From an uncultured Gemmatimonadales bacterium (GTDB lineage: Bacteria; Gemmatimonadota; Gemmatimonadetes; Longimicrobiales; RSA9), in assembly GCA_963708135.1 (NCBI GenBank), contig OY970192.1, positions 1,376,001-1,440,000 on the forward strand: a stretch of 64,000 bases of DNA. The letters run 5' to 3'. The notes under the pieces are model-generated. The model worked only from the letters and a program-made list of their open reading frames with translations, had not been told where the DNA came from and did not search any database. Positions 33,708 through 42,331 of the stretch are shown piece after piece. The position numbers were made by a program, and so were the translations under genes. Each line of letters opens with the position of its first letter. The first letter of the stretch is position 1.

Positions 33708-35141
33708 ATGCGACGCACCCGCAGAACGCCGGCGCTCCCGGCAGCCCTGGTCGCCTGCCTCCTCGGGCCCGTGTCGGCGCGCGCACAGGGCGGCGCGCCG
33801 CAGCCGAAGACGCCGATCGACTGGGGCGCGTACGGCAACGAGAGCGTCCGCGTGCTCTCGAACTACCTGAAGATCAACACCACGAATCCGCCCGGGAACG
33901 AGCTCGAGACGGCAAGGTTCCTCAAGGCGATTCTGGACCGGGAGGGGATCCCGGCCGAGATCCTGGACACGATGGAGCTGGGGCCGAACCGCGCGAACCT
34001 CTACGCCCGCCTGAAGGGCGCCGGGGCGAAGCCGGCCATCGCGCTCGTCAACCACATGGACGTGGTGCCGGTCACGCCGGAGTTCTGGCACGTGCCGCCG
34101 TTCTCGGGCGAGATCCGGGACGGTTACCTGTGGGGCCGCGGCGCGCTGGACATGAAGGGCAACGGCATCGCGCAGCTCATGGCGATGATCGCGCTCAAGC
34201 GGAGCGGGGTGCCGCTCGAGCGCGACATCGTCTTCATCGGCAACGCGGATGAGGAGGTGGGCTCGAAGGGCGCCTACACCTTCGTGGAGCGGCACCCGGA
34301 CCTCCTGAAGGACGTGGGCTTCCTGCTCACGGAGGGCGGCGCCAACGTGGTCCGGAACGGCAGGCTCGACTACTACGGCGTGAGCGTCTCGGAGAAGCGG
34401 ACGTTCTGGCACCGCATCACGGTGCACGGCGTGCCGTCCCACGGCTCCCAGCCCACGAAGGAGAACCCGGTGCCCCGGCTGGTGCGGGCGCTGGACCGGA
34501 TCGCGGCCTATGAGACGCCCCTCGAGGTCACGCCGGCGGTGGAGAAGTTCTTCCACGACATCTCGCGTAACTATGCCGGCGAGCAGCAGGTGTGGCTGGC
34601 GGACGTGAAAACGGCGCTCTCGGCCCCCCGGGCGCGCGCGTGGATCCTCTCCGATCCCTACCGCAACGCCATCCTCCGCAACACGATCTCGGAGACCGCG
34701 CTGTCGGGCTCGAACAAGACCAACGTGATCCCGCCCGAGGCCACGGCCGACCTGGACATGCGGCTGCTGCCGGACCAGGACCCGGATGCGTTCATGGCCA
34801 CGCTGAAGGGGATCGTCGCCGACACGGCCGTGCACTGGGCGCCGCTCATCACGCCGGCACCGCCGATGGACAACCCGATCGACACGCCGCTCTTCCACGC
34901 CATCGAGCGCGCGGCCCACGACCGCGACCCGGACGCGCTGGTGACGACGGTGATGCTGACCGGAGGCACCGACCGGCCGGCGTACCGCCAGCTCGGCATC
35001 GTGACCTACGGCTTCTCGCCGTTCAAGATCGACGCGGAGGAGAGCCACCGGGGCGTGCACGGCAACGATGAGAGGATCCCGGTGGCGCAGGTCGGCTGGG
35101 GGGTGCACCTCCTCTACGACGTGCTCCGCTACGCACAGTAG
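33708..35141 (+). CDS. Secreted M20/M25/M40-family metallopeptidase
   Basis: Signal peptide; TTNPPGNE, HMDVVP, GRGALDMKG, ADEE, GGTD, HGNDER. Confidence 0.9.
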   Translation: MRRTRRTPALPAALVACLLGPVSARAQGGAPQPKTPIDWGAYGNESVRVLSNYLKINTTNPPGNELETARFLKAILDREGIPAEILDTMELGPNRANLYARLKGAGAKPAIALVNHMDVVPVTPEFWHVPPFSGEIRDGYLWGRGALDMKGNGIAQLMAMIALKRSGVPLERDIVFIGNADEEVGSKGAYTFVERHPDLLKDVGFLLTEGGANVVRNGRLDYYGVSVSEKRTFWHRITVHGVPSHGSQPTKENPVPRLVRALDRIAAYETPLEVTPAVEKFFHDISRNYAGEQQVWLADVKTALSAPRARAWILSDPYRNAILRNTISETALSGSNKTNVIPPEATADLDMRLLPDQDPDAFMATLKGIVADTAVHWAPLITPAPPMDNPIDTPLFHAIERAAHDRDPDALVTTVMLTGGTDRPAYRQLGIVTYGFSPFKIDAEESHRGVHGNDERIPVAQVGWGVHLLYDVLRYAQ

Positions 35142-35274
35142 TGGGCCCTATGCGAGGTTCGGTGGAAACGATCCATCGGCGCACCCCATCGCTCCCTCGG
35201 GTACGCTCCCTCGGGCGACGTCGGCGGCCGCACCCCGCCGGCGCGCCACGACATCCACTCCGCCGGAGACGCCC

Positions 35275-37209
35275 ATGAAGCCCGCCCTTCGCCTCGCGAC
35301 GCCGACCGTGCTCCTCTCCTGCCTCGCCGTGCTCACGCCCGTGACGCCGCTCCTCGCCCAGCGGGGCGGCGTGGCCGCCGTGGCCGACACGTCGGCGTTT
35401 CGGCCGCTCGACCTGCCGGCGCCGAACGTCTATCGCACGGGCTCCGGCCGCCCGGGGCCGGATTACTGGCAGCAGCGCGTGGACTACGGCATCGAGGCCA
35501 CCCTCGACCCGGCGGCCAACGTGGTGCGTGGCCAGGAGCGGATCCACTACTACAACCACTCCCCGACTCCGCTCGGCTACATCTGGATGTTCCTCGAGCA
35601 GAACATCTGTGCGAGGAACAGCGTGACCAACCAGCTGAACCAGCCGCCGCTCGTGTTCCAGGACGCGACGTTCGACTTCTCCTGCAAGGGGTTCGAAGGC
35701 GGGGACGTGCTCGAGTCGATCACGAGCGCAGGTCGGGCCGTCGCGCACGAGGTCTACGGCACCACGGTCCGCGTGGAGCTGCCCCGGCCACTCCCGAGCG
35801 GCGGCGAGGTGACGCTCGACGTCGCGTGGCATTTCTCCGTGCCGCCCTACGGCGCGGGGCGCATGGGGCACGATGGACCGCTGTACGAGGTCGCGCAGTG
35901 GTACCCGCGCGTCGCGGTCTACGACGACGTGCGCGGCTGGAACCACGAGCCCTACATCGGCGCGGGCGAGTTCTACCTCGAGTACGGCCACTTCGACGTG
36001 GCGTTGACGCTGCCCGCCTCCTACCTCGTGGCCGCGACCGGCCGGCTGACCAACCCGGACGAGGTGCTCACCGCGGCCGAGCGAGAGCGGCTCGCCCGCG
36101 CCCGCACCAGCGACTCGCCCGTCGCGATCGTCACGGCGGCGGAGGCCGGCAAGCCGTCCAGCCGACCGGCCGCCTCCGGCACGCTCACGTGGCGCTTCTC
36201 CGCCGACAGTGTGCGTGACTTCGCGTTCGCCGCCGCTCCCACGCTGCGCTGGGACGCCGTGAACTACGACGGGATCCTGGTGGCGACAATGTACCGGCCG
36301 TCCGCGACGTTGTGGACCGAAGCCATCAAGATGGCCCGCTCCGCGATCCAGCATTTCAGCGAGCAGTGGTTCCGCTACCCCTATCCGCATGCCACGACCG
36401 TCGAGGGGCCGATCGAGGGGATGGAGTACCCGATGCTCACCTTCGTCCCCGCCGGTCCGACCCGCTTCGATCTGGAGTGGACGCTCATGCACGAGTTCGG
36501 GCACGAATGGTTCCCGATGGTCGTCGGCTCGAACGAGCGGCTCTATCCGTGGATGGACGAGGGCTTCAACACCTTCATCGACATCGGCGGCGCCGAGACG
36601 TACTTCAGGGGCACGCCCTACGGCGACACGCTCGGACTGACGCCCCTGCACCTCTACCCGGAGCACGCCATCCCGGGCGAGGAGCAGCCGCTCATCGACC
36701 GCCCGGTCGAGCAGCGCGACCTGTTCTGGACCGGCTACCGCAAGCCCGCCCTCATGCTGCGCACGCTGCGCTACGAGGTCCTGGGCAAGGAGCGTTTCGA
36801 CCGCGCGTTCAGGACCTACATCCGCACGTGGGCGTTCAGGCACCCGACGCCGGCGGACTTCTTCCGCGTGATGCGGGACGAGTCCGGCGTCGACCTGGAC
36901 TGGTTCTGGCGCGAGTGGATCTACGAGACGGCCCGCCTCGACCAGGCCGTGGACTCGGTCGGCACCCGGAAAGGCGGCGGCTCCGCGGTGTTCCTCTCCA
37001 ACCGCGGCACCATGGTCATGCCGCTCGAGCTGCGCCTCACGTTCCAGGATGGCACTGCCGAGACCGTCCGGCTGCCCGTGGACATGTGGAACCTCGGCAA
37101 CCGCTTCGAATACCGCGTACCGGGAACGAAGGCGGTCAGGGCGGCCGAGATCGACCCACGCCACGTGCTCCCCGACACGGACCCTGCAAACAACCGCTGG
37201 CCCCGCTGA
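35275..37209 (+). CDS. Secreted M1-family (gluzincin) aminopeptidase
   Basis: Signal peptide; YRTGSGRPGPDYWQQR, GMEYP, HEFGH..WMDEG. Confidence 0.9.
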   Translation: MKPALRLATPTVLLSCLAVLTPVTPLLAQRGGVAAVADTSAFRPLDLPAPNVYRTGSGRPGPDYWQQRVDYGIEATLDPAANVVRGQERIHYYNHSPTPLGYIWMFLEQNICARNSVTNQLNQPPLVFQDATFDFSCKGFEGGDVLESITSAGRAVAHEVYGTTVRVELPRPLPSGGEVTLDVAWHFSVPPYGAGRMGHDGPLYEVAQWYPRVAVYDDVRGWNHEPYIGAGEFYLEYGHFDVALTLPASYLVAATGRLTNPDEVLTAAERERLARARTSDSPVAIVTAAEAGKPSSRPAASGTLTWRFSADSVRDFAFAAAPTLRWDAVNYDGILVATMYRPSATLWTEAIKMARSAIQHFSEQWFRYPYPHATTVEGPIEGMEYPMLTFVPAGPTRFDLEWTLMHEFGHEWFPMVVGSNERLYPWMDEGFNTFIDIGGAETYFRGTPYGDTLGLTPLHLYPEHAIPGEEQPLIDRPVEQRDLFWTGYRKPALMLRTLRYEVLGKERFDRAFRTYIRTWAFRHPTPADFFRVMRDESGVDLDWFWREWIYETARLDQAVDSVGTRKGGGSAVFLSNRGTMVMPLELRLTFQDGTAETVRLPVDMWNLGNRFEYRVPGTKAVRAAEIDPRHVLPDTDPANNRWPR

Positions 37210-37227
37210 AGCGGGAAGGAGGACCGG

Positions 37228-38025
37228 ATGAATGCGGATGATCCGGATGGCCGCTGGGCCGAAGAGCCGCCCGACCGGCGCCGGCGGCGGCTGCGCAGCC
37301 GGCTCGGCACGGGTCCGCTCGGCCGGCTCGACCGACCCCGGAAGATCGTGCTGCGCGACTTCGTCGTCTACGAGGTGAAGCTGCTGCTCGACGGTGCCAA
37401 GAGCTTCGCGATCACGTGGGCCGCGCTCGGTGCGGTGGCGCTCGACATGATCGCCCCCGGAGAGCGGCCGGGGCGTCGCTTCTACGCCGTGATGCGGCTG
37501 GGCGAGCGGCTGGATCGGTGGCTCAGCCTGTACGGCATCGCGGAGGCCGCCGAGGCCGACGAGGACGGGATGTTCGGAGTGAGCCGCGCCGGCAGCCCGA
37601 CGCTCCTCGGCCACCTCGAGTCGTTCGTGCACCGGGCCGTGGTGGGAGAGGCCGGGGACCTCCAGGACAATGTCGCGCCCGGGCCGCGACCGGACGCCAG
37701 CGGGACGCCGGCCGCACAGGCCTGGCCGCGTCCTGCCGAGGATGTCTCCGGCGAGCCGGCGCTCTCCCCCTACGTACGGGCGGAGCGCGCCACCCGGTTG
37801 GCCTCCGACCTCTTCGACCGGGCCCTCGCCGCGCTCGACCGCGGCATGGACGCGCTCGACACCGACCGCGAGGCCGGGGAGGAGGAGCCCGCGCCCGACC
37901 GGCCCGAAAGCGCCGCCGGCGCAGCCGGACCGGGCGCGAAGCCCGAGTCCGGGGCTTCTTCCTCCGTGGACGCGGGACCCGCGCCGCCTTCTGGCCTCGA
38001 GACGTCGCCGCCTCAGAGCTCCTGA
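37228..38025 (+). CDS. Hypothetical protein
   Basis: GGAGG SD; ordered helical N-terminal half, low-complexity acidic/Pro tail; 3' end overlaps the convergent ABC permease. Confidence 0.6.
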   Translation: MNADDPDGRWAEEPPDRRRRRLRSRLGTGPLGRLDRPRKIVLRDFVVYEVKLLLDGAKSFAITWAALGAVALDMIAPGERPGRRFYAVMRLGERLDRWLSLYGIAEAAEADEDGMFGVSRAGSPTLLGHLESFVHRAVVGEAGDLQDNVAPGPRPDASGTPAAQAWPRPAEDVSGEPALSPYVRAERATRLASDLFDRALAALDRGMDALDTDREAGEEEPAPDRPESAAGAAGPGAKPESGASSSVDAGPAPPSGLETSPPQSS

Positions 38026-38777
38026 CGGCCGAACGCCCACACGGCCGCTCCCGCCGCCACGCACACGGCCGCGAGCGCGGTGGCGACGGGCCAGAGCACG
38101 GGGACGCGGCTTCGGCCGGCGAGCTGTATCGCCGCCCCGGGGAGGCCGGCGAACGTGTAGCGCGCGACGGGCGCCCAGATCGTCCCCAGCATGCACAGGA
38201 AGTAGAAGGCGAGCCCCGCCCCCGCCGCGCCGCCGGTTCCCGGCACCAGCACGGAGAAGAAGGTCGTCACGGTCACGAGAAGCGCGGCGAACGGCAGCCA
38301 TGCCCCCACCGCGGACGCGAGCGGCGCCAGCGCCGCGCCGGTGAAGAGCAGGCTGGTGACGGCCTCGCACACGACGGTGCCCGCCACCGTGGCGCCGGCC
38401 AGCAGAAGGACCTGCCAGGCGAGCTTGGCGGCTACGAACCCGGCGCGGGAGAGCGGCTTGGTGAGCATGAGGACGGCCGTCCCGGACCGCCGCTCCCCCG
38501 CCACCGCGCCCGCCGCCGCCAGGACGAGCGCGATGGCCACGATCTGGTCCAGGCTCTTCACGAACTGGCGGTACGCATCCGGCGCGACGGCGGGCGGGAG
38601 CACGATGGCGACCCCTGGCTGTGAGCCCGCCATGGAGGACACCAGCGCCGGCGTGAGCTGCGCGAGCACCGGGCTCACGATCCCGAACAGGACGAACATC
38701 CCGACGATCACCGGAAAGTGCCACGTCCGCAGCGACTCGGTCCTCTCCTTGCCCAGGAACGCCCCGAACGCGCTCAC
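38013..38777 (-). CDS. ABC-2-type transporter permease
   Basis: [22 protein letters not shown], six TM segments. Confidence 0.88.
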
Positions 38778-39706
38778 GCCGCCCCCCCGCCGACCAGCGC
38801 GACGAACGCATCCTCCAGCGTGAGGCGAGCCGCGACCATTCGCCGCAGCGGAAGCCCGGCCGCGGCGACGGCGCGCGGGATCCCGATCTGCGCCGTCTCG
38901 AGGTCCGTGACCCGCACCCGCAGCATGCCCGCCTCCCGGTCCACCTCCCGGACCCAGGGCATGGCCATCAGCGCCGCCTCCAGCGGGGCACCGTCCCCTC
39001 CCACCTCCAGCTCGACCATCGGACCGCCGGTCCGCGCCGCCAGCTCCTCCACGCCTGACTGCGCCACCACCCGACCGCGATCCAGAATCGCCACGCGGTC
39101 ACACACCCGCTCAATGTCGGCCAGGATATGGCTCGAGAAGAAGACCGTCGTCCTGCCGCGCAGAGACGCGATCATCTCGAGGACTTCACGGCGGCCGATC
39201 GGGTCGAGCGCGCTCGTCGGCTCATCCAGCAGCAGCAGCCGCGGCGCATTCACGAGCGCCTGTGCGATCCCGAGCCGCTGCTTCATCCCTCGGGAGAACC
39301 CGCCGATCCGCGTCCCGACCCCGGCGAGCCCCGCCATCTCGAGCAGGACCCCCACGCGTTCCGTGAGGGCCTGCCCCTCCAGCCCGAACAGCCGCCCCGA
39401 CAGCGTCATGAGCTCCCGCGCCGTCATCCACGGGTAGAAGCCCGGAATGTCCGGCAGGAACCCGACCTCCCGCCCCGGCGCCGCTCCGCGCGTCGCGTCC
39501 CGGCCGAGGACGCGCGCCGTCCCCGAGGTCGGGCGGGCGAGCCCCATCAGGATGCGCAGCGTGGTGGTCTTGCCCGCGCCGTTCGGCCCCAGGAACCCGA
39601 ACACCGACCCCTCCGGCACGAACAGTCCCACGCCATCCAGCGCGCGCGTGCCGCCGAACGTCTTGACGAGGCCGGCCGCCTCGATCGCGGCCCGGACCCC
39701 CGTCAC
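38774..39706 (-). CDS. ABC transporter ATP-binding protein
   Basis: [27 protein letters not shown]. Confidence 0.95.
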
Positions 39707-40020
39707 CCGCCCTCCTCGCCGCCGTACAGCGCATCGACCGCCCGCCGGGTCCGTTCTCCCCCGCCCGGCTCCGCCTTCGCCTCCGCTCCACCGCCTGGCG
39801 CCGGGCTACCTCGCCCCGCGGCGAAGTAGATGAGCGGTCCAACCAAGTTCAGCAGCACGATCACCGCCACCCAGAACCCCTTGCTCACCGGCACCCGCCC
39901 CCGTCGCGCCAGGTCCACGAGCGCCCACGCCTGGAGCATCACCTGGACCACCGCGAGAACCGTCAGCGCCACGAGCGCCCCCGTCGAGAGCCCCGCCACC
40001 ACGTCCATGAACCTCTGCAC
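39703..40020 (-). CDS. Small membrane protein with PLDc N-terminal-type domain
   Basis: WALVDLARR..FWVAVIVLLNLVGPLIYFAAGR; GGAGG SD. Confidence 0.8.
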   Translation of the reverse strand: MQRFMDVVAGLSTGALVALTVLAVVQVMLQAWALVDLARRGRVPVSKGFWVAVIVLLNLVGPLIYFAAGRGSPAPGGGAEAKAEPGGGERTRRAVDALYGGEEGG

Positions 40021-40054
40021 CGCGTGTCCTCCGGGAAGGGAAGTGTGGCTGCCG

Positions 40055-40085
40055 AATATTTAGGCAATCGTCTAAATATTGTCAA
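40055..40085 (-). promoter_or_regulatory. Promoter of the ABC operon overlapped by an AT-rich palindromic operator
   Basis: Minus strand TTGACA-17 nt-TAAATA; perfect inverted repeat AATATTTAG-N8-CTAAATATT (40055-40080). Confidence 0.75.
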
Positions 40086-40125
40086 CGGGACGCGCTGGAG
40101 CCGGGGGGACAACGGACGGGGCGGC

Positions 40126-40155
40126 TTGACCGTTCCGCGGCCCGCGGGGTATACT
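40126..40155 (+). promoter_or_regulatory. Sigma70 promoter of leader-thrS
   Basis: TTGACC-18 nt-TATACT. Confidence 0.7.
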
Positions 40156-40184
40156 TCTTCCGACGGTCAACCGGAGCGAACGGC

Positions 40185-40265
40185 ATGCGCGCGAAGCGGA
40201 TTCGGACCACCACGACGACGACGCGGCCCCCCTCGGGAGGCGGCGGTGCGGGGTGCGTCGAATAG
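40185..40265 (+). CDS. Thr-rich leader peptide MRAKRIRTTTTTTRPPSGGGGAGCVE (thrS attenuator)
   Basis: GGAG SD at 40173-40176, ATG 40185, six consecutive Thr codons at 40206-40223, TAG 40263-40265; too short for the ORF track. Confidence 0.85.
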   Translation: MRAKRIRTTTTTTRPPSGGGGAGCVE

Positions 40266-40285
40266 ACGCGAGCTCCGACGATCCG

Positions 40286-40321
40286 ACGCGGCCTCTCGAG
40301 AGCGGGGGGCCGCGTTTTTTT
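40286..40321 (+). terminator. Attenuator (intrinsic terminator) in the thrS leader
   Basis: ACGCGGCCTCTCG-AGAG-CGGGGGGCCGCGT ending in a run of 7 T, about 80 nt before the thrS ATG. Confidence 0.9.
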
Positions 40322-40402
40322 ATGGCAGCGGCCGCGGCGGTGCGCCGGTTGCGGGCACTGCGGCGTCGCCTAAGTTGAGCGCACCCTGAACGGTACCGGA
40401 AC

Positions 40403-42331
40403 ATGGCGAACGACGACAGGATCAGAGTCACCCTCCCGGATGGGTCGGTGAAGGAGATGCCGGCGGGCTCGACCGCGCGCGATGTGGCGGAATCGATCGG
40501 CCCGGGGCTGGCCAGGGCGGCGCTGGCGGCGCGGGTGGATGGAGGGGTGGTGGACCTGTCGCGGCCGCTCGAGGGGGACGTGTCGCTCGAGATCATCACC
40601 CCGAAGAGCCCGGGCGCGCTGGACGTGCTCCGGCATTCGGCGGCGCACGTGCTGGCGACCGCCGTCCGGCAGGTGCGGCCGGACGCGCAGATCGGCTTCG
40701 GCCCGGCGATCGAGAACGGCTTCTACTACGACTTCGATGTGGACCACCCCTTCACGCCGGAGGAGCTGGAGGAGATCGAGCGGCACATGGCGCAGGTGGC
40801 GGACGCGGACGATCCCTTCGAGCGGCGGGTCGTGACGGTGGAGGAGGCGCGCGAGCTGTTCGCGGATGACCCGCTCAAGCTGGAGCGGCTGGCGGACTTC
40901 GACGAGAACGAGGTGATCACCGTCTACCGCAACGGCCCGTTCCTCGACCTGTGCCGGGGGCCGCACGTCCCCTCGACCGGGAAGGTGCGGTGCGTGAAGC
41001 TGCTGAACACCGCGGGCGCGTACTGGCGCGGCGACGAGAAGCGGCAGATGCTCCAGCGCATCTATGGCACCGCGTTCTTCAGCGAGCAGGAGCTGAGCGC
41101 GTACCTGCACCAGCTGGAGGAGGCCAGGCGGCGGGACCACCGGAAGGTCGGGCGCGAGCTGGATCTCTTCTTCTTCAGCCCGCTGGCGCCCGGAGCGGCG
41201 TTCTGGACCGGTCGCGGGACCATCCTGTACCACGAGCTGGTGGACTTCATGCGCGGCGTGCTGGCCGGCCGCGGCTACGAGCAGGTGAAGACCCCGCTGC
41301 TCTACAACAAGGCGCTGTGGGAGCAGTCGGGGCACTGGGGCAAGTACCGGGAGAACATGTTCCTGGTCCTGGACAAGGACACGGGCGAGGCGGACGTGTC
41401 GCTCAAGCCGATGAACTGCCCGTCGCATTTCCTGATGTATCTGCGGCACAAGCACAGCTACCGCGAGCTGCCCATCCGCTACGCGACGCAGGACGTGCTG
41501 CACCGCAACGAGGTGACCGGCGCGCTCTCCGGGTTGACACGCGTGCGCCAGTTCCAGCAGGACGACGCGCACATCTTCATCGCCGAGAGCCAGATCGGCG
41601 ATGAGGTCCGGCGCCTCGTCGAGGAAATGCAGCTCGCCTACGGCACCTTCGGACTCGAGTATCGAGTCAAGTTCGGCACCAGGCCCGAGGTGCGCGTGGG
41701 CGACGAGGCGCTCTGGGACCGCGCCGAGAGCGACCTCCAGGCGGCGCTCGACGGCACCGGCGTGCCGTACGAGCTGAACCCGGGCGACGGCGCCTTCTAC
41801 GGCCCGAAGGTCAACTTCCACGTGGCGGACGCGATCGGCCGCACCTGGCAGCTCGGCACCATCCAGCTGGATTACAACAACCCGGAACGCTTCGACCTCA
41901 CCTACGTGGGCGAGGACAACGCCGAGCACCGGCCGGTCGTGATCCACCGCGCCGTTTTCGGGTCCTTCGAGCGCTTCATCGCGATCCTGATCGAGCACTT
42001 CGCCGGGGCGTTCCCGCTGTGGCTCGCGCCCGAACAGGTGCGCGTGCTGCCGATCACCGATGACCTGGCCGCCCCTGCCGGCGAGCTCGCCGCCGCCCTG
42101 CGCGACGCCGGCATCCGCGCGGATGTCGACGCTCGCTCCGAGACCCTCGGCTACCGCATCCGCGAGGCGGAGACCATGAAGGTCCCCTACATGGCCGTCA
42201 TCGGCCAGCGCGAGGCGCAGGCCGGCACCGTGGCCGTGCGGGCGCGCGGCGAGGGCCGGAAGCAGGAAGTGATGGACCGGGAGGCGTTCATCGCACGGCT
42301 GGCGGAGCAGATCTCGGCGCGCAGCCTGTGA
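40403..42331 (+). CDS. thrS: Threonine-tRNA ligase
   Basis: TGS domain, RHSAAHVLA, DLCRGPHV, RDHRKVG, KPMNCP, GDGAFYGPK, IHRA. Confidence 0.98.
   Translation: MANDDRIRVTLPDGSVKEMPAGSTARDVAESIGPGLARAALAARVDGGVVDLSRPLEGDVSLEIITPKSPGALDVLRHSAAHVLATAVRQVRPDAQIGFGPAIENGFYYDFDVDHPFTPEELEEIERHMAQVADADDPFERRVVTVEEARELFADDPLKLERLADFDENEVITVYRNGPFLDLCRGPHVPSTGKVRCVKLLNTAGAYWRGDEKRQMLQRIYGTAFFSEQELSAYLHQLEEARRRDHRKVGRELDLFFFSPLAPGAAFWTGRGTILYHELVDFMRGVLAGRGYEQVKTPLLYNKALWEQSGHWGKYRENMFLVLDKDTGEADVSLKPMNCPSHFLMYLRHKHSYRELPIRYATQDVLHRNEVTGALSGLTRVRQFQQDDAHIFIAESQIGDEVRRLVEEMQLAYGTFGLEYRVKFGTRPEVRVGDEALWDRAESDLQAALDGTGVPYELNPGDGAFYGPKVNFHVADAIGRTWQLGTIQLDYNNPERFDLTYVGEDNAEHRPVVIHRAVFGSFERFIAILIEHFAGAFPLWLAPEQVRVLPITDDLAAPAGELAAALRDAGIRADVDARSETLGYRIREAETMKVPYMAVIGQREAQAGTVAVRARGEGRKQEVMDREAFIARLAEQISARSL

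Follow-up and report, generated by a model that had tools for sequence, protein, structure and literature searches.

The window analyzed here comprises 64,000 nt of an uncultured Gemmatimonadales bacterium (contig OY970192.1 of assembly GCA_963708135.1, order Longimicrobiales), and the subject of the analysis is the leader of its thrS gene, which encodes threonyl-tRNA synthetase (ThrRS) and whose named relatives belong to the Longimicrobiales and other Gemmatimonadota. A single full-length thrS copy is present in the 5.45-Mb single-contig genome and it is preceded by a candidate transcription attenuator: a promoter, a Shine-Dalgarno sequence, a 26-codon open reading frame (ORF) with six consecutive threonine codons, and a GC-rich hairpin followed by seven T residues (table 1). 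All of these elements, first described in an initial annotation made from the DNA sequence, lie exactly where that annotation had placed them. Four segments of the leader RNA are distinguished, numbered 1 to 4 from the 5' end, of which segments 3 and 4 are the two arms of the terminator.

Table 1. Coordinates of thrS and of the features in its leader (40126-40402), counted from the first nucleotide of the window
Feature	Coordinates	Strand	Remarks
Sigma-70-type promoter, TTGACC-18-TATACT	40126..40155	+	10 out of 12 consensus matches
Shine-Dalgarno sequence, GGAG	40173..40176	+	8 nt 5' of the leader ATG; direct reading
26-codon leader ORF, MRAKRIRTTTTTTRPPSGGGGAGCVE	40185..40265	+	ATG at 40185, stop codon UAG at 40263-40265
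Six tandem Thr codons, ACC ACC ACG ACG ACG ACG	40206..40223	+	
Segment 1, ACGCGGCCCCCC	40221..40232	+	starts at the last Thr codon and copies the terminator 5' arm
Segment 2, CUCGGGAGGCGGCGG, antiterminator strand	40232..40246	+	partners are segment 3 or, locally, segment 1
Middle hairpin	40249..40277	+	from folds; leader stop codon in the loop, includes 40250-40260
Segment 3, terminator 5' arm	40285..40298	+	
Segment 4, terminator 3' arm	40303..40316	+	
T7 tract of the intrinsic terminator	40315..40321	+	
thrS, threonyl-tRNA synthetase, 642 aa	40403..42331	+	domains TGS, tRNA_SAD, tRNA-synt_2b (class II core) and HGTP_anticodon

The promoter is the only sigma-70-like site found between 39500 and 41000 (mean in shuffled sequences 0.0) and transcription would start near position 40162. 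The leader ORF is presumably translated by the ribosome, with the run of threonine codons as the putative sensing site. The terminator hairpin (40285-40316) contains 14 pairs, 10 of them G-C, closed by a loop of four, and its T tract is separated from the thrS start codon by 81 nt. A search for direct and inverted repeats identified segment 1 as a perfect 12-nt complement of segment 4. The upstream gene (39703-40020) is encoded on the opposite strand, which means that the terminator cannot be assigned to a gene upstream.

The complete genome was scanned for small ORFs that are rich in one amino acid and are followed by a hairpin and a T-run. Among the 43 rows obtained, only one reaches at least five threonines within seven codons and this is the leader in front of the sole thrS gene. 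A covariance model constructed from thrS leaders gave a similar picture, with 94.6 bits for the window leader and 32.6 bits for the next match in the genome.

The upstream regions of thrS in other genomes were examined for an ORF of 8-45 codons whose start lies no more than 330 nt upstream of thrS, whose end is separated from the gene by 20 nt or more and which contains at least four threonines per 7-codon window, and the same definition was used for all sets. In the first set, 21 out of 100 usable upstream regions were positive; the reverse complement gave one positive out of 100, and 20 dinucleotide shuffles gave 0-3 (mean 0.6). With a threshold of at least five threonines out of seven, 13 regions remained in the first set and none in the controls. 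Metagenome contigs yielded four positives among 68 thrS upstream regions. The closest ThrRS (78% identity, on a metagenome contig) is preceded by the leader MSAMRGTTTTTTTRPSPRGAVRVLVR, which contains seven threonines and shares the context of a T-run followed by RPSP. A covariance model (R1) matched 120 out of 151 genomes but these matches also included other attenuators, reverse-strand terminators and coding DNA, and the thrS upstream regions were therefore fetched directly for a census of the order. The census was based on an even sample of 151 Longimicrobiales genomes, 143 of which contain a match to the ThrRS N-terminus. A total of 130 upstream regions were fetched and 129 regions from 127 genomes were usable. 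Sixteen places where the match starts after query residue 14 (mostly ThrRS without the N-terminal domain) were left out, as was genome G080 with less than 200 nt of upstream sequence. Overall, a Thr-rich leader ORF was identified in 30 out of 129 regions, distributed over three families (19/40, 7/37, and 4/52), compared with a single case on the reverse complement, which bears out the expectation that relatives would carry a conserved Thr-run ORF upstream of thrS. A hairpin with a T-run is located between the leader ORF and thrS in all 30 positive regions. The threonine run is the conserved part of the peptide and the remainder varies freely among the relatives. Decayed leaders that keep the scaffold with fewer threonines (e.g., in G041, G050, and G068) are missed by the definition used.

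A set of 21 loci was compiled for the structural comparison. Locus L087 was dropped (Thr-rich ORF with an unconvincing terminator), L019 was added (only three threonines out of seven but the same terminator) and L020 was left out. In every one of the 21 loci the 3' part of the ORF holds a stretch that is complementary to the 5' arm of its own terminator. The best duplexes sum to -406 kcal/mol; when the ORF part was dinucleotide-shuffled 300 times, the sum was -300 ± 10.6 kcal/mol (lowest sum -334 kcal/mol). For 15 of the loci, at most 11 out of 300 shuffles equal the observed duplex energy, and the duplex of L009 is no better than those of its own shuffles. Mean duplex energies are -19.3 kcal/mol for cognate and -15.2 kcal/mol for non-cognate pairs of ORF strand and arm. 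The antiterminator strand begins 22-52 nt after the first threonine codon of the run and ends 0-20 nt 5' of the leader stop codon, and the terminator hairpin starts 19-33 nt past the stop codon; these spacings are consistent with the geometry of stalled and terminating ribosomes.

Between subgroups the arm varies in sequence (GCCUCUC, CCCUCC, CCUUCCC, and GGCCCCC, with GACAGGGC in the Thermoanaerobaculia) and its two partners, the strand within the ORF and the terminator 3' arm, co-vary with it, such that positions within the arm change from U-A to C-G or from G-C to C-G concertedly across segments 2, 3, and 4. Covariation was quantified in a model-made alignment (A2) of 45 rows in which the modelled pairs are those of the terminator only; two of the rows are reverse-strand terminator matches, and L005 and L285, from unpublished genomes, were left out. 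In the terminator, to whose helix the alignment was fitted, 91.2% of the cells are paired and 47 cells carry double changes (12.3 ± 3.8 in shuffles). Pairing in the 8-bp core of the antiterminator, about which the model had no information, extends to 71.9% of the cells, compared with 47.7-60.6% for slid partners, and the core contains 29 double-change cells (15.5 ± 5.5 in shuffles, with 12 out of 500 shuffles reaching 29). One pair of this core occurs as AU in 14, GC in 14, and GU in 10 rows. What the sequences show is the anatomy of the leader, the conservation of this anatomy, a terminator that covaries, and a segment 2 whose complementarity to the 5' arm of the terminator covaries as well. 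The G-rich antiterminator strand is what leaves the leader peptide with a Gly-rich tail.

The four-segment layout described in the initial annotation includes a 10-nt direct repeat, CGACGCGGCC, whose two copies at 40219-40228 and 40284-40293 are indeed identical and lie within a longer repeat of 25 nt (40219-40243 and 40284-40308, 72% identity). The 10-mer by itself is no rarity in the window (five matches, 3.1 expected). Positions 40250-40260 had been proposed as the antiterminator strand that pairs with both copies, and they can do so, but each of these duplexes reaches only -14.8 kcal/mol, compared with -22 kcal/mol for the duplex of segment 2 with about 40286-40300. In all folds 40250-40260 pairs locally with 40265-40277, and the strand that is conserved across the relatives is 40232-40246. 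Segment 2 can alternatively form a local hairpin with segment 1 (40222-40231 with 40235-40245), which ties up the antiterminator strand; an energy of -17.4 kcal/mol was obtained for the fold of 40215-40250, which includes this 1:2 hairpin. The hairpin is a degenerate copy of the terminator. All six of its pairs are present in nine out of 45 aligned rows and five of the six pairs in two more, which indicates a trait of the subfamily only. The proposed segment 1 is in this respect present in the window, local pairing included, and does not extend to the relatives at large. In the predicted structures the off state, made up of the local hairpins 1:2 and 3:4, is in competition with a long 2:3 (+1:4) helix, which is the form that the naked full-length RNA adopts at equilibrium (-84.6 kcal/mol). 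Inspected by eye against the E. coli-type thrS operator, a mimic of the tRNA-Thr anticodon arm that overlaps the thrS ribosome-binding site and has anticodon-like 7-nt loops beside the start codon, the hairpin loops of the leader read CUC, GAAUA, and AGAG.

Overall, the leader is best explained as a ribosome-mediated leader-peptide transcription attenuator that would make transcription of thrS depend on how much charged tRNA-Thr is available, a reading to which we assign a probability of roughly 0.8. RNA polymerase would start from the promoter and the ribosome would translate the leader. When charged tRNA-Thr is scarce, the ribosome would stall early in the threonine run and mask segment 1, leaving segment 2 free to pair with the emerging 5' arm of the terminator (40286-40300), so that the terminator hairpin would be blocked and RNA polymerase would read into thrS. 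When charged tRNA-Thr is plentiful, the ribosome would reach the stop codon between segments 2 and 3, with the RNA between these segments threaded through it. Segment 2 could then pair with segment 1 again, the local 3:4 hairpin would form together with the T7 tract, and most transcripts would end near position 40320. The element most likely serves to raise ThrRS production upon a shortage of charged tRNA-Thr, in this soil-type bacterium and in many of its relatives. Translation of the leader, stalling, the timing of folding and any change in readthrough are the parts of this scheme that we infer. The folds agree with it for the early stall: the first unmasked base with a ribosome at Thr 1-4 is 40219-40228, the RNA folded up to position 40300 in the early-stall state adopts the 2:3 antiterminator, and in the ribosome-masked equilibrium fold with a stall at Thr 1 the terminator is lost. 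The core of the initial annotation, an attenuator for thrS based on the translation of threonine codons, is strongly supported by the comparison with relatives.

A number of observations weigh against this reading. The ribosome-masked equilibrium folds are mixed: with a stall at Thr 4 or Thr 6 the terminator probability is 0.86-0.94, with the ribosome at the stop codon or on naked RNA the 1:4 and 2:3 helices form and the terminator probability is 0.00, and in several relatives (e.g., L008, L015, L102, and L103) the terminator wins in every state. The on/off decision must therefore be kinetic and, with a terminator probability of 0.00 at equilibrium, so must the off state. Segment 2 of the window ends 16 nt 5' of the stop codon and a terminating ribosome would hardly cover it. 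Covariation was anticipated for three helices and is found in 2:3 and 3:4, but the 1:2 complementarity over the 21 loci is not above that of shuffled sequences (-294 compared with -288 ± 11 kcal/mol). A Shine-Dalgarno-like motif precedes only nine of the 21 related leaders, some of the others appearing leaderless, and simple scans find a promoter-like site before 11 of the 21. The threonine run of the window leader shows no bias toward rare codons and is made of the codons that the genome commonly uses for threonine (ACG 55%, ACC 41%). A weak secondary promoter may be located between the terminator and thrS. About three quarters of the sampled Longimicrobiales thrS genes are without the element as defined here, and the census includes unpublished genomes among its positives (G016 and G148) and negatives (G019, G026, and G102). 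Finally, windows with at least four arginines out of seven are as frequent as the corresponding Thr-rich windows (22 compared with 21 in the first set, 29 compared with 30 in the census), a frequency expected for DNA with 70% GC, and the case for conservation is therefore made by the two kinds of control (reverse complement and shuffles) and by the level of at least five threonines out of seven.

The sequence comparisons indicate that the co-occurrence of leader and terminator before thrS is not accidental. GC-rich DNA gives rise to many spurious ORFs and to much complementarity (the sum of -300 kcal/mol for shuffled duplexes illustrates this) and the 10-mer repeat is likewise unexceptional, but a chance meeting of a spurious ORF and a terminator with an (ACS)n run in intergenic DNA of high GC content is highly improbable in view of the low controls (1/100, 1/129, and 0-3 per 100), the single instance in the genome, located at thrS, and the covariation of both terminator and antiterminator. 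The unit from promoter to terminator would yield a self-contained RNA of about 158 nt, and small RNAs that derive from attenuators and act in trans are described for rnTrpL (PMC6614838), which would suit an independent small transcript (a small RNA or a small-protein gene) or a constitutive leaky terminator, with no sensing of threonine and with thrS expressed by fixed readthrough or from its own weak promoter. Such an arrangement is quite unlikely to be the explanation: it does not account for a conserved threonine run within a peptide that is otherwise free to vary, for the link to thrS in 30 out of 129 regions, or for the occurrence of the same scaffold with other codon runs before genes for those amino acids, and the conserved complementarity between ORF and terminator arm would be pointless in a constitutive terminator. 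The scan from 39500 to 41000 also found no further promoter-like site before thrS. A function in trans could coexist with attenuation.

Sensing of tRNA-Thr by the Thr-rich ORF through a different route, namely translational coupling or reinitiation, Rho-dependent termination, or mRNA stability, is unlikely as well. It would agree with the terminator often winning the equilibrium folds regardless of the position of the ribosome and with the poor T tracts of some related leaders, and leader ORFs that boost translation by reinitiation have been proposed (PMC4833913). However, the 81 nt between the T tract and the thrS start codon are too far for simple coupling, all 30 positive loci carry the hairpin and T-run, the spacing of 19-33 nt from stop codon to hairpin is tight, and the antiterminator complementarity covaries. 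Transcription attenuation by the translating ribosome remains the preferred reading.

Three further leaders were identified in the genome of the window, at locations outside the window and all on the minus strand. The first (L221, G000:C1:5427957-5428121) consists of a His-rich ORF (MSSSGALQHGHHAHHHHGP...), a promoter-like TTGACC and a terminator with a T7 tract directly before hisG (Pfam HisG and HisG_C), and probably represents a his attenuator with the same architecture. The second (L224, G000:C1:3917648-3917793) has a Tyr/Phe-rich ORF (MHTQPRFYAYYFSYATHATGREASRVRV) and a terminator, precedes a 3-deoxy-D-arabino-heptulosonate 7-phosphate (DAHP) synthase with a ferredoxin-like N-domain, and is probably an attenuator responding to aromatic amino acids. 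The third (L222, G000:C1:5014946-5015051) combines a Cys/Met-rich ORF (MCACCMCMRGSP...) and a terminator with a T8 tract before a RimK-like ATP-grasp gene, where both the codon set and the target are unusual for an attenuator. A Thr/Met/Ile leader of the threonine pathway was not found in this genome by the ORF scan or the covariance model. Such leaders occur in relatives from the same family: mixed Thr/Met/Ile leaders (e.g., MMRFCPITTTMTIITRLSRRGGVLAFVR) precede GHMP-kinase genes (L203, L204, L207, and L210) and an aspartate kinase gene (L218).

Among the best 30 matches of the thrS-leader model in the order, 23 are located before thrS, four before GHMP-kinase (homoserine-kinase-like) genes, three of them Pfam-confirmed, one before an aspartate kinase gene and two before hisG, one of these in the unpublished genome G019. 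A model built on thrS leaders only finds the kinase leaders with E values of about 1e-12 to 1e-13 and the His, aromatic and Cys/Met leaders of the window genome with E values of 3e-4 to 3e-3. Within the same genus, thrS and GHMP-kinase leaders share approximately 35 nt almost exactly (...ACCCGGCUCUCCCGGAGAGGCGGCGUGC...) together with the peptide motif TRLSRRGGV, and the thrS and kinase attenuators are therefore paralogous. The thrS leader could on this evidence be one member of a modular, re-codable scaffold that was spread by duplication within the Longimicrobiales, a tentative proposal whose chances we place a little short of even. A GCGGCC-YCYC stem and a G-rich strand within the ORF may have been reused while the codon run alone was rewritten, with codon sets that may comprise Thr for thrS, Thr/Met/Ile for homoserine-kinase-like and aspartate-kinase genes, His for hisG, Tyr/Phe for DAHP synthase and Cys/Met for the ATP-grasp gene. 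Support is best for the leaders of thrS and of the threonine-pathway genes. If the proposal is correct, copies of a single element would link the synthetase and the pathway to the same signal. Attenuation may be in general use as a mode of regulation in the order, as suggested by the sister leaders that precede threonine-pathway, his and aromatic genes.

Thr-rich thrS leaders were also observed outside the phylum, at four loci in Thermoanaerobaculia genomes of the Acidobacteriota (L102, L103, L106, and L109; 21-25 codons with 7-10 threonines). Their design is that of the window leader, in that the last codons are complementary to the terminator 5' arm and are followed by the terminator, but their stem (GACAGGGC/GCCCUGUC) is unrelated. 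The stem sequence accounts for the conserved ...PC(R/H) end of the peptides. Either a common origin or convergence would explain these leaders. Within one family, a small hydrophobic ORF of about 35-45 codons with the pattern ...LWPWAL...FF.YVPR is located between the upstream region and thrS (L245/L220 in G093, L251 in G089, and L240 in G054), and the Thr leader of G093 is found on the upstream side of it. The ThrRS matches of one genus begin at query residue 73-74 (G028, G032, G034, G038, G060, G070, G116, G135, G138, and G144, with second places in G052 and G108), which suggests a form of ThrRS without the N-terminal TGS domain. Three thrS places with a late match start do carry Thr leaders, in G052 (residue 14; L206/L357), G108 (residue 62; L201), and G124 (residue 95; L200). 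The idea of a Thr-poor ThrRS in the window was rejected, its threonine content of 4.2% being unremarkable next to a genome mean of 5.3%. Elsewhere in the window, positions 35023-38811 on the minus strand contain a putative ORF of 1262 codons, either a gene or a shadow frame in GC-rich DNA, with no Pfam family at E ≤ 0.001.

To our knowledge, almost nothing is known about regulation at the RNA level in the Gemmatimonadota. The concept of attenuation is unchanged by the leader described here but the thrS leader is recurrent and conserved and not a one-off. The leader family offers a set of natural compensatory variants with which to follow how a kinetic switch could be set by a terminator, its near-copy and the strand complementary to both, and the element flags small unannotated ORFs that genome annotation overlooks.

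A search of Rfam with positions 39000-41500 at E ≤ 10 returned no leader family, no Thr_leader (RF00506) and no T-box; the three matches obtained belong to unrelated families, lie at other coordinates and are all below the gathering scores. The window leader accordingly belongs to no curated RNA family. The absent Thr_leader match gives no support to homology with the E. coli thr leader, and the similarity of the peptide to E. coli ThrL pointed out in the initial annotation did not hold up, with the N-terminal KRI not kept in the closest relatives. A literature search identified no description of this control for the Gemmatimonadota, in agreement with the earlier statement that it is undescribed in the lineage; the search did not cover a 2010 survey of aminoacyl-tRNA operon attenuation. 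This survey, by Lopatovskaya, Seliverstov and Lyubetsky, is said to treat attenuation of amino-acid and aminoacyl-tRNA operons and may list thrS attenuators in other phyla.

The mechanism proposed for the window leader is classical whereas its target gene, thrS, is unusual. Control of thrS is known from textbooks in two forms, a tRNA-like translational operator that binds the ThrRS protein in E. coli, and T-box leaders of thrS and thrZ in the Firmicutes, which sense uncharged tRNA by RNA-RNA contact. Autoregulation of E. coli ThrRS is noted in PMC2965389. The goal is the same in all three cases, that is, to match ThrRS synthesis to the charging of tRNA-Thr or to the level of ThrRS, but the proposed sensor of the window element is the translating ribosome and the element has no T-box match at E ≤ 10. 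The window leader would thus represent a third, ribosome-based solution for the control of thrS.

A close functional parallel is a leader peptide attenuator that controls an aminoacyl-tRNA synthetase operon in E. coli, pheM-pheST. Both systems combine a short ORF of cognate codons and an antiterminator/terminator switch with a synthetase downstream, such that the output would follow the charging of its own tRNA. They differ in amino acid, gene and phylum and have no sequence relation; furthermore, the window thrS appears to stand alone after its leader and the off state in the subfamily of the window uses the 1:2 hairpin, the degenerate terminator copy. The thrL-thrABC leader of E. coli (RF00506) likewise has a short leader ORF with a run of threonine codons and, behind it, an intrinsic terminator, but it precedes a biosynthetic operon instead of a synthetase gene and contains Ile in addition to Thr codons, whereas the window leader uses Thr codons only. 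The sister Thr/Met/Ile elements before threonine-pathway genes in relatives of the window genome are a further likeness to thrL-thrABC. The only precedent found for a Thr leader before thrS is the short ORF "thrL" upstream of thrS in Streptomyces lividans TK24, proposed to be a Thr-dependent attenuator, which as described there contains only two threonines, is leaderless and according to its authors has no clear intrinsic terminator (PMC8079986). The window leader differs from this description in having six tandem threonine codons and a canonical terminator, and its switch is supported by the comparison with relatives.

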